From the IMG/VR virus record IMGVR_UViG_3300044658_000058, positions 1 through 64,000 of that record: DNA of 64,000 bases. One strand, 5' to 3'. This stretch comes from a virus. Below are positions 37,415-49,539 of this stretch, piece by piece. Position 1 is the first letter of the stretch. Each line of letters begins with the position of its first letter. The notes beneath the pieces were generated by a model, which saw only the letters and a program-made list of their open reading frames with translations, did not search any database and was not told the origin of the DNA. Position numbers and translations under genes: made by a program.

Positions 37415-37584
37415 TCTTTGTACCTTTCTATCGCCCGTATTGCGGCTCGGGCTTCGTCTTTAAATTCTTTCCAGAGTTCGCATCGTGACGAATCTTCGGA
37501 ATTGCAAATCAGGCAGAGTCGCTTGTTGATGGTCTTGCCAGCCGCAAGACATATCTCACGACTGACTAACTCCACTTTCGACAT
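37411..37584 (-). CDS. Small Cys-containing hypothetical protein
   Basis: Manual ORF MSKVELVSREIC...CLIC...ARAAIRAIE; ATGA overlap with def. Confidence 0.55.
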   Translation of the reverse strand: MSKVELVSREICLAAGKTINKRLCLICNSEDSSRCELWKEFKDEARAAIRAIERYKE

Positions 37585-38347
37585 GGCGATATCTCTCTTC
37601 GATTCGGAGCGGATTGCTGCGAACCATGCGTGTCCGGATGACCGGTTTTGTAGGATGATGTTCGAAAGGAATAGTCGCCAATTCCTTCAAAGTCAAGTGC
37701 CTTTCTTCCGTGACACGGGTAATTTCGGTTCCTACTCGGAAACAGGCAGCATGTTCTTCAAAGAAATCAATGCCAAACGCTTTGATCATTTCCAACTTTT
37801 CCTTTGTGGTCTTTCCCATAAGTTTGGAGTGGCCAAAAAGGAAATGTGCAGCCGATTGGACGGAATTTTTAAAGGCGTCTTGTTGCCTCCAAAGGATCAT
37901 ATTGTTGGCTTCTTCCATGGTCGGAACGTTGATAATTCGGCAATCAAACGATGGAATCGTTTTTGGTGGCTCGCCAAAATATGAACAATAAGCAAGCGTG
38001 AATTTGGCGGCACACATCGCCGCTAGGACCGATGCGAGCTTCTGAATCTTGCCATCGAACATGAACTGCGATAAACCGTGACACGGTTCCCAAATCAGCG
38101 AAATTTCATCTGACTGTGTGTACCCAAGGACAGCCTTGGTTTCATAGGCCAGATATTCGGTCGTATCCTGCATACAGGCGGACATGTCACGGTCAAATGG
38201 CCGCTTCATTCTCCGGGTAAAACTAGAGAATGAACGACCATCCAAACGAGCATAAACCGGCAGAGATGTATCAAGCTTCTGTTCCGTGAAAGGTCTTTCA
38301 TAAGCCTTCATGCGGTCACCGAAGTTGTCGTGGTGTTTTGTACTCAT
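37556..38347 (-). CDS. tRNA(His) guanylyltransferase-like 3'-5' polymerase (Thg1-like protein)
   Basis: RLDGRSF, QSDEISL, FDGK.QKL.S, FDCR, WRQQDA. Confidence 0.9.
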   Translation of the reverse strand: MSTKHHDNFGDRMKAYERPFTEQKLDTSLPVYARLDGRSFSSFTRRMKRPFDRDMSACMQDTTEYLAYETKAVLGYTQSDEISLIWEPCHGLSQFMFDGKIQKLASVLAAMCAAKFTLAYCSYFGEPPKTIPSFDCRIINVPTMEEANNMILWRQQDAFKNSVQSAAHFLFGHSKLMGKTTKEKLEMIKAFGIDFFEEHAACFRVGTEITRVTEERHLTLKELATIPFEHHPTKPVIRTRMVRSNPLRIEERYRHVESGVSQS

Positions 38348-39327
38348 GTATACTTTGTTTCAACTTTATCTGGCCATAGAGGATAGTTCACATCTTTATA
38401 GTGACGTTCATAATAATCTGGTCCATAATAAGTTTGATCTTTACTCTTCCATTCGTTATGGAATATTTCGTTGATTTCCTGTTGCGTCAAAGTGAAAGCA
38501 TCTTGCTCTTCTTTTGTCGCATGGAAATAATAATGCCGGTCACCATATGGGATTTCTGGCATCGGTTCATCCGATGCGGTGATGATCGCTTTGTCACTTA
38601 GTTTTCTGGCGAAATTGTAGTGGCGATAATTCGGATCGTGTTTAGACAGATAAACAAAAACCAAATACGGTTGCTTATTCTGTTCGATGAAATAATGGGT
38701 ATTTCTTGTGGCACCATATCCATAGTAGAATTTTTGCGTTTTGTTCAACGGATCATTTTTATCCACATCACGATATGTGAGAGATGAAACATAGAATGTC
38801 CCGATATATCGGCCATTGACGGTAGGCGATTCCACCATGTCACCGACTTCAAGCTTTTTGCGCTCTGGTGGAGCGAGGAAAGTCAGATAGCGTTCATCGT
38901 TTACGGAAATCAGATGGTTGATTGCACCGATGCGGCCCCAAAGAAATTCACCTTGGATTTCGCCTTTCAGGAAATCATTGTGGTTCAGAAGGTCGGAAAG
39001 GTTGTGAGCGGTGATTTCAAGCTGGAAACCACGAGGATCATTGATTCGGAACCATTTGTTTGAGGTTTCATATCGAGATACTGAATGATCGAAGCGAAAG
39101 CCTGACAATGGCTTGTTTTCGAGCGTGAGTGCTTCTAGGCGCTTGTCCGGCTCATTGGGATGATACAGAGCCCAATTCCAGTGCTTGCCAGCCCATTGGT
39201 CTACCGTCTCTTTGCGCTTCTGTGCAGCGGAATCGGTTCCATCCGGAACCGCAAAACCAAGAACGTCGCCATCGTGTTCAACTTTACGACCGACGTAAAG
39301 TTGTTTCGGAAAATTACAAATTTCCAC
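38344..39327 (-). CDS. Conserved phage hypothetical protein
   Basis: LGFAVP...KRKETVD.W, I.DPRGFQLEI..NL. Confidence 0.7.
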   Translation of the reverse strand: MEICNFPKQLYVGRKVEHDGDVLGFAVPDGTDSAAQKRKETVDQWAGKHWNWALYHPNEPDKRLEALTLENKPLSGFRFDHSVSRYETSNKWFRINDPRGFQLEITAHNLSDLLNHNDFLKGEIQGEFLWGRIGAINHLISVNDERYLTFLAPPERKKLEVGDMVESPTVNGRYIGTFYVSSLTYRDVDKNDPLNKTQKFYYGYGATRNTHYFIEQNKQPYLVFVYLSKHDPNYRHYNFARKLSDKAIITASDEPMPEIPYGDRHYYFHATKEEQDAFTLTQQEINEIFHNEWKSKDQTYYGPDYYERHYKDVNYPLWPDKVETKYT

Positions 39328-39354
39328 TCAAAAATCCTGATTGTGTGATTAAGG

Positions 39355-39430
39355 CGGGCGTCCTCACCAAACTAGACGAACCCGGCCATAGCGTTGTGGC
39401 CCGGTATGGGATTCGAACCCATGTTTCCCG
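39355..39430 (-). ncRNA. Circularly permuted tRNA-like unit 2
   Basis: CGGG-AAAC-ATGGG TTCGAAT CCCAT-ACCGGGCC-A, linker, then GGCCGGGT-TCGTC TAGTTTGGTGAG GAC-G-CCCG. Confidence 0.75.
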
Positions 39431-39439
39431 AGAATTCAG

Positions 39440-39514
39440 TAGGGCGTCCTATCCGCTAGACGACCTCGCCCATAAATGGTGGGCGAGGGCTGGATTCGAA
39501 CCAACGTTTCCCTA
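39440..39514 (-). ncRNA. Circularly permuted tRNA-like unit 1
   Basis: TAGGG-AAAC-GTTGG TTCGAAT CCAGC-CCTCGCCC-ACCA, linker TTTAT, then GGGCGAGG-TCGTC TAGCGGATAG GAC-G-CCCTA. Confidence 0.8.
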
Positions 39515-39521
39515 AGCTTTA

Positions 39522-39550
39522 TATATACGACTTTTAGAAAGAAATGTCAA
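39522..39550 (-). promoter_or_regulatory. Sigma70 promoter directly upstream of the permuted tRNAs
   Basis: TTGACA-N17-TATATA; predicted +1 near 39514-39516. Confidence 0.65.
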
Positions 39551-40163
39551 CTCTTTTTTGATAAAGTGCATCACCAAAAATATGATATTTTTCTAAATCG
39601 ATTTCTTTTCTCACAAAGCCATGTTTTTCCATGAAGGCATCCACGGTGGCAACAGAAGCACTATTTTCATACATAACTTTTCGCCACACTTCCAATAGAA
39701 TATATTTAATGTTTTTAAGAGTTTCTATTCCACCATTCAAAACAAATAATTCATATCCTTGAACATCTATAACAAGAGTATTGTATATCATTTCATGATC
39801 GATGAAATATTCGTCTAAAGATGTTTGTAATATAGATTTTGGCGTAAACGATCTTTCTGGATATTCTATTAAATGATTAGTAGGTTTTAAAATTGAACTA
39901 GAAACACCATTTTTGCTTGACTCAAAAATGGTGACCGTTGAAGTTTTATCACCCAAAGCAATATTTTCAGCGATCATCTGTGGATATGGCTTTATTGTGT
40001 CCAAAAGTTCCTTGAATGGTCCTTCAAGAGGTTCAAACAATAGTACAGGAACATCTTTTTTCGCATAGAATGGAACTTCCTGTCCAATATGAGCACCGAC
40101 ATGAATTACGCCGGTGACATCTTTTCCAGACAGGTACATTTCCGCCGCTGTATCGTCTGCCAC
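39534..40163 (-). CDS. FkbM-family methyltransferase
   Basis: HVGAHIGQE, FEP, IDVQGYELFVL.G. Confidence 0.85.
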   Translation of the reverse strand: MADDTAAEMYLSGKDVTGVIHVGAHIGQEVPFYAKKDVPVLLFEPLEGPFKELLDTIKPYPQMIAENIALGDKTSTVTIFESSKNGVSSSILKPTNHLIEYPERSFTPKSILQTSLDEYFIDHEMIYNTLVIDVQGYELFVLNGGIETLKNIKYILLEVWRKVMYENSASVATVDAFMEKHGFVRKEIDLEKYHIFGDALYQKRVDISF

Positions 40164-40171
40164 GATAATTC

Positions 40172-40501
40172 CTAATTATTTGCTGTTGGGACGTTTTTGG
40201 TTGGAATATAGATCGGATAATCTAGATTTGGTTTTTCGTGCCTTTCTAAGCCTTCAAGAGCAGATATAATATCTTTTGAATTCTTTGGTGTTAGATTACC
40301 CAACAAAGCTTTTGCTGCTTTGTACAGATTCTCGTCATCGAGAATTTTACAATTTGCCAGATCAATAATATTTCTTGGATTTTTAAGAGACTGCGATGCC
40401 CACGCTTTCTCTTTATTTGAATTTACCAATATTGTCCATAAAACAGCTACCTTCTCATTCAAATCTTCTATTTGTTCTTCTAATTCTTTTATCTTATTCA
40501 T
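40172..40501 (-). CDS. Hypothetical coiled-coil protein
   Basis: AAGGT SD, ATG start. Confidence 0.55.
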   Translation of the reverse strand: MNKIKELEEQIEDLNEKVAVLWTILVNSNKEKAWASQSLKNPRNIIDLANCKILDDENLYKAAKALLGNLTPKNSKDIISALEGLERHEKPNLDYPIYIPTKNVPTANN

Positions 40502-40513
40502 CTATTTAATACC

Positions 40514-41332
40514 TTATGCAAAATCAGTTGAAGAACTGGCTACTGTCATGTTAACGAGTGTCCAGTTTATGTTGTTACCTGAAGAATCAGAACCCAATGT
40601 TGTAACAGAAGAATTATCTTCAAAACGAAGATAGAAACCCTTTGCGCCAAAAGTTCCTGTATATTCAATCGGCTCACTTAACGTAGCAAAATCAGAGGGC
40701 GTGAGTTGTTGTCCGTCAACAAAAATGAATTCATCCAATAGACCATCATAAAAGCTACCGGAAGATTCATCACGACCTATAACAGTGACAGAATAATTAT
40801 TATTAATAGACGCATTAGCATTTAGAGTATAATCTATGTTTGTACTGAACGATGTAATTTCTGTTCCGTCAACATATATTCTAGTTCTCAAAGATGCTGT
40901 AGATTGTGAAGTGTCAATAGCTACAACCAAATGATGCCAAGAAGAATCTACACCGAAAGAAGCAGTACTTTCTTTCCTCATAATAAACGACCCAGATAAT
41001 CTATCTATGACAAGTAGTTTATCCAGATTATCGAATCCTATAAAGAATCTATTATTCGTATCTGTTCCAGATGTGAATATTCTTTGAAAACTGGCACCAG
41101 ATTCTCTTTTGAAAAACGTGCTAATCGTAAATGTTTTTCTTGAAGTTCCTCCGGCCCCCCAAGATAGGGTCAAACACTGTGAACTTGACGATTCAAAATC
41201 AAGACTTCTTGTGTTAAATGGTTCCAAAAGACCTAAAAAGTCCCCAACGCTTACAAAGCTAAATGTCCCATCACTTTGAAGAATATACAAGTAATCGTTG
41301 TTGGTCGGTGTTATAGAGGGTATGGTTGGAAT
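40514..41332 (-). CDS. LamG/concanavalin-A-like domain protein (virion-associated candidate)
   Basis: TFTIS..KR, WHHLVVA.D, FVDGQQL.P.DF, FG..GFYL.F, DSSGN; start may be ATT 41332 or TTG 41290. Confidence 0.75.
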   Translation of the reverse strand: MPTIPSITPTNNDYLYILQSDGTFSFVSVGDFLGLLEPFNTRSLDFESSSSQCLTLSWGAGGTSRKTFTISTFFKRESGASFQRIFTSGTDTNNRFFIGFDNLDKLLVIDRLSGSFIMRKESTASFGVDSSWHHLVVAIDTSQSTASLRTRIYVDGTEITSFSTNIDYTLNANASINNNYSVTVIGRDESSGSFYDGLLDEFIFVDGQQLTPSDFATLSEPIEYTGTFGAKGFYLRFEDNSSVTTLGSDSSGNNINWTLVNMTVASSSTDFA

Positions 41333-49362: not shown

Positions 49363-49440
49363 CGCCCGTTAGCTTAGTTGGTCTAAAGCCCTCTGCTCAT
49401 AACAGAGTGATCGTCGGTTCGAATCCGACACGGGCAACCA
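49363..49440 (+). tRNA. tRNA-Met(CAU), initiator-like acceptor (C1xA72)
   Basis: CGCCCGT/ACGGGCA-A-CCA; anticodon stem CTCTG/CAGAG; anticodon CAT. Confidence 0.88.
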
Positions 49441-49443
49441 AAT

Positions 49444-49539
49444 TCCTCCGTTACGGACTCGTGCCGTCGCTTGGAGCCCCCTATATTTTTACCGGTCGGA
49501 TAGGGCACCGTTCAATTCGGGAAACGGAGGAGTCGACCA
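49444..49539 (+). ncRNA. tRNA-like structured RNA of unknown type
   Basis: 9-bp closing stem TCCTCCGTT/AACGGAGGA, internal hairpins, CCG-TTCAATT-CGG T-arm, downstream ACCA. Confidence 0.5.

Follow-up and report, generated by a model that had tools for sequence, protein, structure and literature searches.

Circularly permuted tRNA mimics of YrlA design head a protein X and Thg1-like gene cassette in a T4-like soil phage

What are two tandem tRNA-like elements, each with its 3' half placed ahead of its 5' half, doing in front of a protein-coding cassette of a phage? The sequence analysed here (the window) is a stretch of 64 kb from the record IMGVR_UViG_3300044658_000058, whose whole-genome record (G000) is 85% complete. 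Its source is a T4-like soil phage; the sequencing runs containing the stretch are of soil, rhizosphere and root DNA, and no RNA run was found among those listed. The original prediction described two permuted tRNA-like genes broken at the anticodon loop, which would be processed into two-piece RNAs acting as decoys or, after ligation, as functional tRNAs. The architecture of the units, their conservation, their relation to known permuted RNAs and the genes that they precede are considered in turn.

The two units and their fold

On the minus strand the order of the elements is promoter, 6 nt, unit 1, the spacer CUGAAUUC, unit 2, 26 nt containing AGGA, and then the GTG of an open reading frame of 327 amino acids (protein X), which is followed by a gene for a Thg1-like protein (TLP). 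The contigs named in this list (L002, L006, L134 and X7) are described in the next section.

39522..39550, minus strand: sigma-70-type promoter TTGACA-N17-TATATA (TTGACA 39550-39545, TATATA 39527-39522), from the sequence
39440..39514, minus strand: unit 1, permuted tRNA(Glu)-like cloverleaf (RNAfold; model R1, 79.8 bits; pairing)
39514-39510, minus strand: unit 1, 3' strand of the closing stem
39509-39506, minus strand: unit 1, AAAC
39505-39489, minus strand: unit 1, T arm
39488-39481, minus strand: unit 1, acceptor 3' strand
39480-39477, minus strand: unit 1, ACCA
39476-39472, minus strand: unit 1, linker TTTAT
39471-39464, minus strand: unit 1, acceptor 5' strand, then TC
39461-39446, minus strand: unit 1, D arm, then G
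39444-39440, minus strand: unit 1, 5' strand of the closing stem
39432..39439, minus strand: spacer CUGAAUUC between the units, single-stranded (counterparts: ACGAAUU in L134, CGAAAUUUU in X7)
39354..39431, minus strand: unit 2, permuted tRNA(Glu)-like cloverleaf (RNAfold; model R1, 71 bits; orthologues in L134, L006 and L002 with compensatory changes)
39431-39427, minus strand: unit 2, 3' strand of the closing stem, then AAAC
39422-39406, minus strand: unit 2, T arm
39405-39398, minus strand: unit 2, acceptor 3' strand
39397-39394, minus strand: unit 2, ACAA
39393-39388, minus strand: unit 2, linker CGCTAT
39387-39380, minus strand: unit 2, acceptor 5' strand, then TC
39377-39360, minus strand: unit 2, D arm, then G
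39358-39354, minus strand: unit 2, 5' strand of the closing stem
38344..39327, minus strand: protein X, 327 aa, GTG start 26 nt past unit 2; directly 3' of the RNA in four lineages
37556..38347, minus strand: Thg1-like protein of the bacterial 5'-end-repair type (Pfam PF04446, 8e-28; phrog_4717)

The sequence reads in the order that had been claimed, 3' half and then 5' half on the minus strand. The end points given originally for unit 1 (39514-39440) are correct, whereas those for unit 2 (39430-39355) lie one base off at each end, the true limits being 39431-39354. The acceptor strands of unit 1, GGGCGAGG/CCTCGCCC, pair at 8/8 positions and its closing stem, CCCTA/TAGGG, at 5/5; those of unit 2, GGCCGGGT/ACCGGGCC, pair at 7/8 with one G.G, and CCCG/CGGG at 4/4. 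The pairing counts of the original prediction were therefore reproduced, as was its statement that the non-permuted reading does not pair: the 5' half of unit 1 and the 3' half of unit 2 match at 4/8 acceptor positions, and cross-unit combinations overall at 4-5/8.

Both permuted cloverleafs are present in the minimum-free-energy structure of the whole stretch (RNAfold). They share a grammar comprising a T arm with the core GGUUCGAAUCC, acceptor strands of 8 nt, ACCA or ACAA, a linker of 5-6 nt ending in UAU, then UC and a D arm of the form GUCU...GG...GGAC. The 8-bp acceptor stem is capped by the ACCA/ACAA loop and the cloverleaf is closed by the “anticodon” stem; in the modelled fold the chain thus ends at the anticodon stem, with the anticodon loop absent and the acceptor stem closed by a loop. 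The nucleotides of an L-shaped, tRNA-Glu-like core are in place (U8, A14, G15:C48, G18G19, U13.G22, a 4-nt variable loop and the T loop UUCGAAU). No tRNA in native order was called at the units by ARAGORN or by Rfam, for which the best score was 25.3 bits (RF00005) against a threshold of 29, and in a permissive scan the weak tRNA match must delete the acceptor. The Rfam scan of the window at gathering thresholds gave four ordinary tRNAs, none of them at the units.

The promoter lies at 39550-39522, which bears out the original claim that it leaves no space for an upstream 5' half; transcription is predicted from its position to start 2-4 nt upstream of unit 1. Four matches to TTGACA-N16-18-TATA occur in the window where 0.39 are expected, and the promoters upstream of the units in L002 and L134 are nearly identical to that of the window. 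Given the preference of RNase E for RN↓WUU, the spacer between the units is a candidate site for RNase E-type cleavage.

Between an SbcC/gp46-like gene and the promoter of the RNA (39534-41290, minus strand) lie genes for an FkbM-type methyltransferase, a 109-aa open reading frame and a lectin-like Laminin_G_3 protein. The SbcC-like gene of L002, L006 and L134 is immediately upstream of the promoter, and this block therefore looks like an insertion. L006 has about 190 nt of non-coding sequence (L006:2588-2780) between the promoter and its single unit, at the place of unit 1 in the window; this gave no Rfam match and no similarity to the other sequences fetched, and it could accommodate an open reading frame of 25 codons.

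Conservation of the permuted fold

Used as queries, both downstream proteins led to three related viral contigs and a further contig from ENA. Four lineages carrying six units were compared: the window with two, L002 and L006 with one each, and L134, an independent ENA contig, with two in tandem as in the window. The covarying homologs in related phages that the original prediction had called for thus exist, and they support pairing within each unit. In the six units the acceptor is paired at 7-8 of 8 positions and the closing stem at 4-5 of 5. Across their alignment 96.2% of cells are paired and both sides have changed in 11 of 22 pairs; sliding the partners brought pairing down to 30-57%. 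The L134 orthologue of unit 1 illustrates this, with stems that differ in sequence and still pair. It is clear from these compensatory changes that each unit is self-complementary with covariation, as proposed. An outer acceptor G:C followed by A is invariant (6/6), the linker ends in UAU ahead of G in every unit (6/6), and the “augmented D helix” features of tRNA-Glu (U11:A24, U13.G22 and the 4-nt variable loop) are invariant across the units. X7, a contig of another study, has a 5' half of the unit 1 type (D arm and closing strand) preceding unit 2. At 39485 a variant from the same sample as the window (C to U on the unit strand) turns a G-C pair into G.U.

A larger set was obtained with a pattern of T loop, 26-32 nt and D arm, the reverse of the tRNA order, which gave 95 distinct viral matches. 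Ordinary tandem tRNAs accounted for 70 of them; in about 21 of the remaining 25 the acceptor strands pair across the loop, and the capping loop in these is often N-CCA with an AU linker ending UAU↓G. The resulting 21-unit alignment has 88.7% of cells paired; its covariation score is 0.56, compared with 0.17 after shuffling, and 0/500 shuffles reach it. There is some ascertainment bias on the acceptor stem, from which the T and closing stems are free. The fold goes beyond chance, since compensatory changes maintain it in six units of four lineages and the covariation of the 21 units is above that of the shuffles. A covariance model built from this alignment gave only two high scores in G000 (79.8 and 71 bits, the next best being 27), and it found one unit each in two complete relatives.

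The third-best match of the model in the genome, at 49404-49461 on the plus strand (27 bits), comprises the 3' part of a tRNA-Met and a tRNA-like element after it; this looks like a dimeric-tRNA type and not a further permuted unit. No match to the locus was found by blastn against annotated phages, and an RNA pattern specific to the subfamily had no exact match over metagenomes.

Could the units nevertheless be remnants of ordinary tRNA genes in decay, the scar of a recombination event or an artefact of assembly? Their parts clearly stem from a tRNA-Glu-type gene, as such an origin would predict, but we regard this explanation as scarcely credible. All four helices are kept by compensatory changes in the six units, which rules out decay; the layout recurs in independent assemblies and studies, and the tandem pair of L134 together with X7 from a separate study rules out an assembly artefact. 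Further, the promoter is conserved, and the natural variant keeps its pairing.

Relation to known permuted RNAs

Permuted tRNA genes of Cyanidioschyzon merolae, other algae and archaea resemble the units in that the 3' half is upstream and a short intervening sequence connects the acceptor ends; in the algal and archaeal precursors RNase P and a 3' nuclease open this sequence. Their termini pair as a bulge-helix-bulge, and they are circularised and become normal decoding tRNAs with conserved anticodon loops; in the units both the bulge-helix-bulge motif and a conserved loop are absent. A genuine permuted tRNA gene, with circularisation or ligation uniting its halves in a decoding 8/5 tRNA, would fit the results of rearranging the halves in silico, where all six units were called as tRNAs by ARAGORN and, as anticipated, a cloverleaf was called only then; it would also fit the encoding of CCA in three of the six. 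The region where decoding would take place tells against it. The nucleotides that follow the 5' half in orthologous units are CU-GAA, AC-GAA, CU-UAA, CU-UUA and CU-AAU, giving would-be anticodons of GAA, UAA, UUA, UAA and AAU, and U33 is lost in unit 1 of L134. To describe the units as broken at the anticodon loop was therefore an overstatement, as no conserved anticodon loop is left. Nor do the flanks form a paired splicing or circularisation motif, and a search of the 85%-complete record yielded neither an RtcB nor an Rnl2-type ligase; to our knowledge bacteria have no splicing endonuclease for the permuted-tRNA route. A decoding role is very unlikely on these grounds. Because neither U33 nor the anticodon is conserved, both of the functions first suggested, ligation into a functional 8/5 tRNA and a decoy for anticodon-loop nucleases, are unlikely. 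A decoy aimed at proteins that recognise the tRNA body or the acceptor end keeps a low probability.

A second permuted RNA is encoded by the phage itself. Just past the end of the window (G000:C1:66376-66720) ARAGORN finds a circularly permuted tmRNA with the tag DNDNFVPLAVAA and a promoter TTGACA-N17-TATAAA. Its junction consists of an acceptor strand, ACCA, a 34-nt linker ending in AAUAU and then G; the junctions of the units are of the same style (...ACCA-linker-UAU↓G) with a shorter linker. Two-piece tmRNA, of Alphaproteobacteria and of the phage, shares with the units the T arm, acceptor 3' strand, ACCA, linker ending in UAU and 5' strand with G, and it matures into two base-paired pieces. 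It differs in its G3.U70 alanine identity pair, tag frame and pseudoknots and in lacking a true D stem, whereas the units have a full D arm and none of these tmRNA features. Consistent with this, ARAGORN called no tmRNA at the unit locus, where the acceptors are without G3.U70. Since the permuted tmRNA is of the alphaproteobacterial type, an alphaproteobacterial host is indicated, and because the junction grammar matches, the likely host already matures such precursors.

The closest known design is that of YrlA-type Y RNAs. These occur close to Ro60 in over 250 bacteria, and in phages as well, and their effector domain is this module (Chen et al. 2014, PMC4201824); it has been likened in print to circularly permuted tRNAs and reported in phages (PMC4201824; Wang et al. 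2018, 10.1101/312249). The statement that there was no phage example of a permuted tRNA-like RNA does not hold in view of these reports. YrlA and the units have in common the T arm, the loop-capped acceptor stem, the D arm, an anticodon-like closing stem and the absence of an anticodon loop, as well as the retained tRNA tertiary nucleotides, occurrence in phages and tandem pairs (YrlA/YrlB). The Rfam YrlA model (RF02553) aligns to the T arm, capped stem and D arm of unit 1, at 16.9 bits against a gathering threshold of 69. The units differ from YrlA in several respects: the closing stem, of just 4-5 bp, begins where transcription is predicted to start, the D arm follows tRNA-Glu (GUCU/GGAC) and departs from the Rfam consensus, the acceptor is of 8 bp with the invariant outer G:C then A, the genes alongside encode protein X and a Thg1-like enzyme, and the Ro60-binding helix is absent, with no flanks of the GGUUAUCG...CACUUGCC type seen in Ro60-encoding phages. 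What flanks the units is the predicted start (2-4 nt), a spacer of 7-10 nt or the start codon of X, and the Ro60/Rsr-binding helix, which in Y RNAs is built from the 5' and 3' ends, is missing.

The protein is missing also. TROVE (PF05731) gave no match in G000 (85% complete) or in G005 and G006 (both 100%), while the controls and the phages of the Y-RNA type were positive. TROVE/Ro60 is present and Thg1 absent in three complete phage genomes whose module is of the Y-RNA type; in the three genomes carrying a window-type module (two of them 100% and one 85% complete) TROVE is absent and a Thg1-like gene lies near the module. Large phage contigs whose modules are flanked by GGUUAUCG...CACUUGCC, which form a Ro60-type helix, likewise have TROVE/Ro60 and not Thg1. 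It is rather probable that the units are the permuted tRNA-like module of YrlA-type Y RNAs, as an offshoot independent of Ro60. The design itself is known; what is new here is the context, in which the Ro60 gene and the Ro60-binding helix are absent and the order RNA, X, TLP is conserved.

Related modules were seen elsewhere. Sinorhizobium phage Phosso (PV764938.1) has two unannotated small RNA genes, each running from promoter to terminator, at about 24.1-24.6 kb (L151:2640-3110); they hold the permuted module inside GGUUAUCG...CACUUGCC flanks, a TROVE protein is encoded at about 290 kb, and they are probably Y RNAs absent from the GenBank annotation. Permuted modules derived from tRNA-Glu, with N-CCA loops, occur in tRNA arrays of large phages in eleven contigs (L009, L015, L019, L020, L021, L039, L047, L051, L079, L095 and L106); none of these reaches the Rfam YrlA threshold, and where the genome is complete, TROVE genes accompany them. 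A tRNA array with a capped permuted module also contains an Rfam tRNA-Sec match of 49.4 bits against a threshold of 47 (L092:3663-3746, minus strand).

The maturation of YrlA offers a guide to that of the units. RNase P cleaves the YrlA of Mycobacterium smegmatis, whose stem has 7 bp, both in vitro and in vivo, and this RNA acquires a CCA end (PMC4201824), though most YrlA RNAs are thought to remain closed (10.1101/312249). Both the architecture and the two-piece maturation therefore have a precedent. Like the units, the M. smegmatis RNA has a full-length acceptor stem and a capping loop that RNase P can open, its two pieces mimicking a CCA-ended tRNA; unlike the units it is bound by Rsr/Ro60 and has its CCA completed after cleavage, whereas the units, known from sequence alone, have an 8-bp stem and encode ACCA/ACAA. 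Determinants for RNase P can be read in the units, namely a 13-bp acceptor/T stack, a U before the predicted cut and the ACCA tail. Each unit would be transcribed from the host-type promoter and fold into a tRNA-Glu-like body, whose acceptor loop host RNase P would cut at ...UAU↓G; 3' trimming or CCA repair would then yield an acceptor stem of 8 bp that bears an ACCA tail. The product would be a two-piece RNA of tRNA shape, as for M. smegmatis YrlA and two-piece tmRNA. Judged by these analogies, RNase P opening with trimming or CCA repair to a two-piece RNA is about evenly balanced between likely and not, since the 8-bp stem departs from the standard substrate and unit 2 and L002 encode ACAA. 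The processing by host RNase P and trimming proposed originally is thus made plausible by M. smegmatis YrlA (PMC4201824) and by the phage tmRNA.

Protein X, the Thg1-like protein and the role of the RNA

Protein X matched nothing in Pfam, NCBIfam or the protein atlas; its N-terminal domain matches PHROGs of unknown function. The family counts 3,239 cluster representatives at E <= 0.001, mostly from phages, with a conserved N-terminal domain of about 190 aa and variable C-terminal parts, and ten of its longer members showed no Pfam domain. A fold model (pLDDT 74.6) found nothing in the PDB at E <= 0.001 with Foldseek; VIA-align placed residues 154-265 against small SH3/Sm-like barrels at Z of about 5, which is in the range of noise, and structure searches of the predicted model revealed no recognisable RNA-binding fold. 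The TLP, a predicted 3'-5' nucleotidyl transferase, has that of B. thuringiensis as its best solved relative (4kgk, 1.7e-30); the metal-binding motifs RxDG and SDE align between the two, and the catalytic motifs are intact. Enzymes of the TLP subgroup are described as repairing the 5' ends of tRNAs, to which they add nucleotides 3'-5' against a template (PMC3061083).

The start of the TLP gene overlaps the stop of X. The TLP adjoins X in L002, L006 and L134 also, and the order RNA, protein X, (small open reading frame), Thg1-like is kept in the four lineages even though X drops to 33% identity (in L006) and the upstream genes differ; the Thg1-like gene lies two genes 3' of the RNA in G000 and in two complete relatives. 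As the four lineages are related T4-like phages, this linkage amounts to about one independent observation, and the conserved order may reflect shared ancestry. The units are absent from distant protein X loci in metagenomes; tRNA genes lie within about 3 kb in 4 of 11 other X loci, a weak hint. A general linkage of Thg1 and the mimic was considered and rejected, since in five other annotated Thg1-encoding phages the model matches are not beside the Thg1 gene. In L002 the unit and X are separated by a stretch of CCUCCUU and by a strong intrinsic terminator, GCAGCCC...GGGCUGC and then U5 (L002:3929-3990), both of which are absent in the window, L134 and L006; co-transcription of the RNA with X is therefore not universal.

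What, then, might the RNA do? The evidence at the locus for a Thg1/TLP substrate is the adjacency of the genes and the outer G:C pair, which is invariant and looks, from the alignment, like the G-1:C73 pair made by Thg1-family enzymes. The RNA would be a dedicated tRNA-shaped ligand of the co-expressed TLP and X, as substrate, product-mimicking regulator or scaffold, and these two proteins would occupy the place that Ro60 has in Y-RNA particles. That the RNA is a dedicated ligand of TLP and X, replacing Ro60, is a possibility we put forward tentatively, at somewhat short of an even chance. A narrower version, in which the two-piece RNA opened by RNase P is the natural substrate or cofactor of TLP and X in a new phage ribonucleoprotein, seems unlikely; such a particle would build or mend the eighth, G-1:C73-like pair on the mimic, or use the mimic as a guide for the enzyme while an alphaproteobacterial host is being infected.

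Two other roles have to be weighed against that of a ligand, and each is improbable, a little more so than the ribonucleoprotein just described. The units could be a cis-acting leader of the operon of X, TLP and def. In one form of this idea they serve as tRNA-like punctuation, and cutting by RNase P sets and stabilises the 5' end of the mRNA that follows; in another they are an autoregulatory site through which X or TLP, by binding, controls its own expression. The run from unit 2 to the start of X without a terminator in the window, L134 and L006, over a gap of 26-33 nt that includes the Shine-Dalgarno sequence, agrees with this, as does the overlap of the X and TLP genes, and the L002 terminator between RNA and X could act as an attenuator. 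Yet every nucleotide of the tRNA-core tertiary contacts is kept, beyond the needs of a processing signal, two complete copies are retained in three lineages, and the L002 unit resembles a self-contained gene from promoter to terminator. A leader function does not exclude a Ro60-independent mimic. Alternatively, the units could act independently of the neighbouring genes as a decoy or sponge, a tRNA-Glu-shaped body without an anticodon soaking up a host factor such as a tRNase that attacks the acceptor stem or T loop, a defence protein that senses tRNAs or an enzyme with specificity for the core of tRNA-Glu; as the anticodon loop is absent, classic anticodon nucleases would not be the target. 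The “augmented D helix” features of tRNA-Glu, invariant in all units, speak for a sponge, the promoter is of an early, host type, and the duplication in some lineages would raise the dosage. However, no candidate target was identified, and a sponge leaves unexplained both the invariant eighth G:C with its A and the fixed place ahead of X and TLP.

Whichever role applies, the units are a genuine, conserved tRNA mimic of YrlA design, duplicated in the lineage of the window and heading a cassette of X and a Thg1-like protein. The locus touches two questions, what bacterial-type TLPs do in vivo and which partner the tRNA-like domain of Y RNAs has. Because permuted tRNA mimics exist without Ro60, searches anchored on Ro60 miss such RNAs. 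In this phage lineage the Y-RNA design has been reduced to a bare tRNA-like module ahead of a TLP and a protein of a large family, a compact three-part system in which both questions are directly testable.
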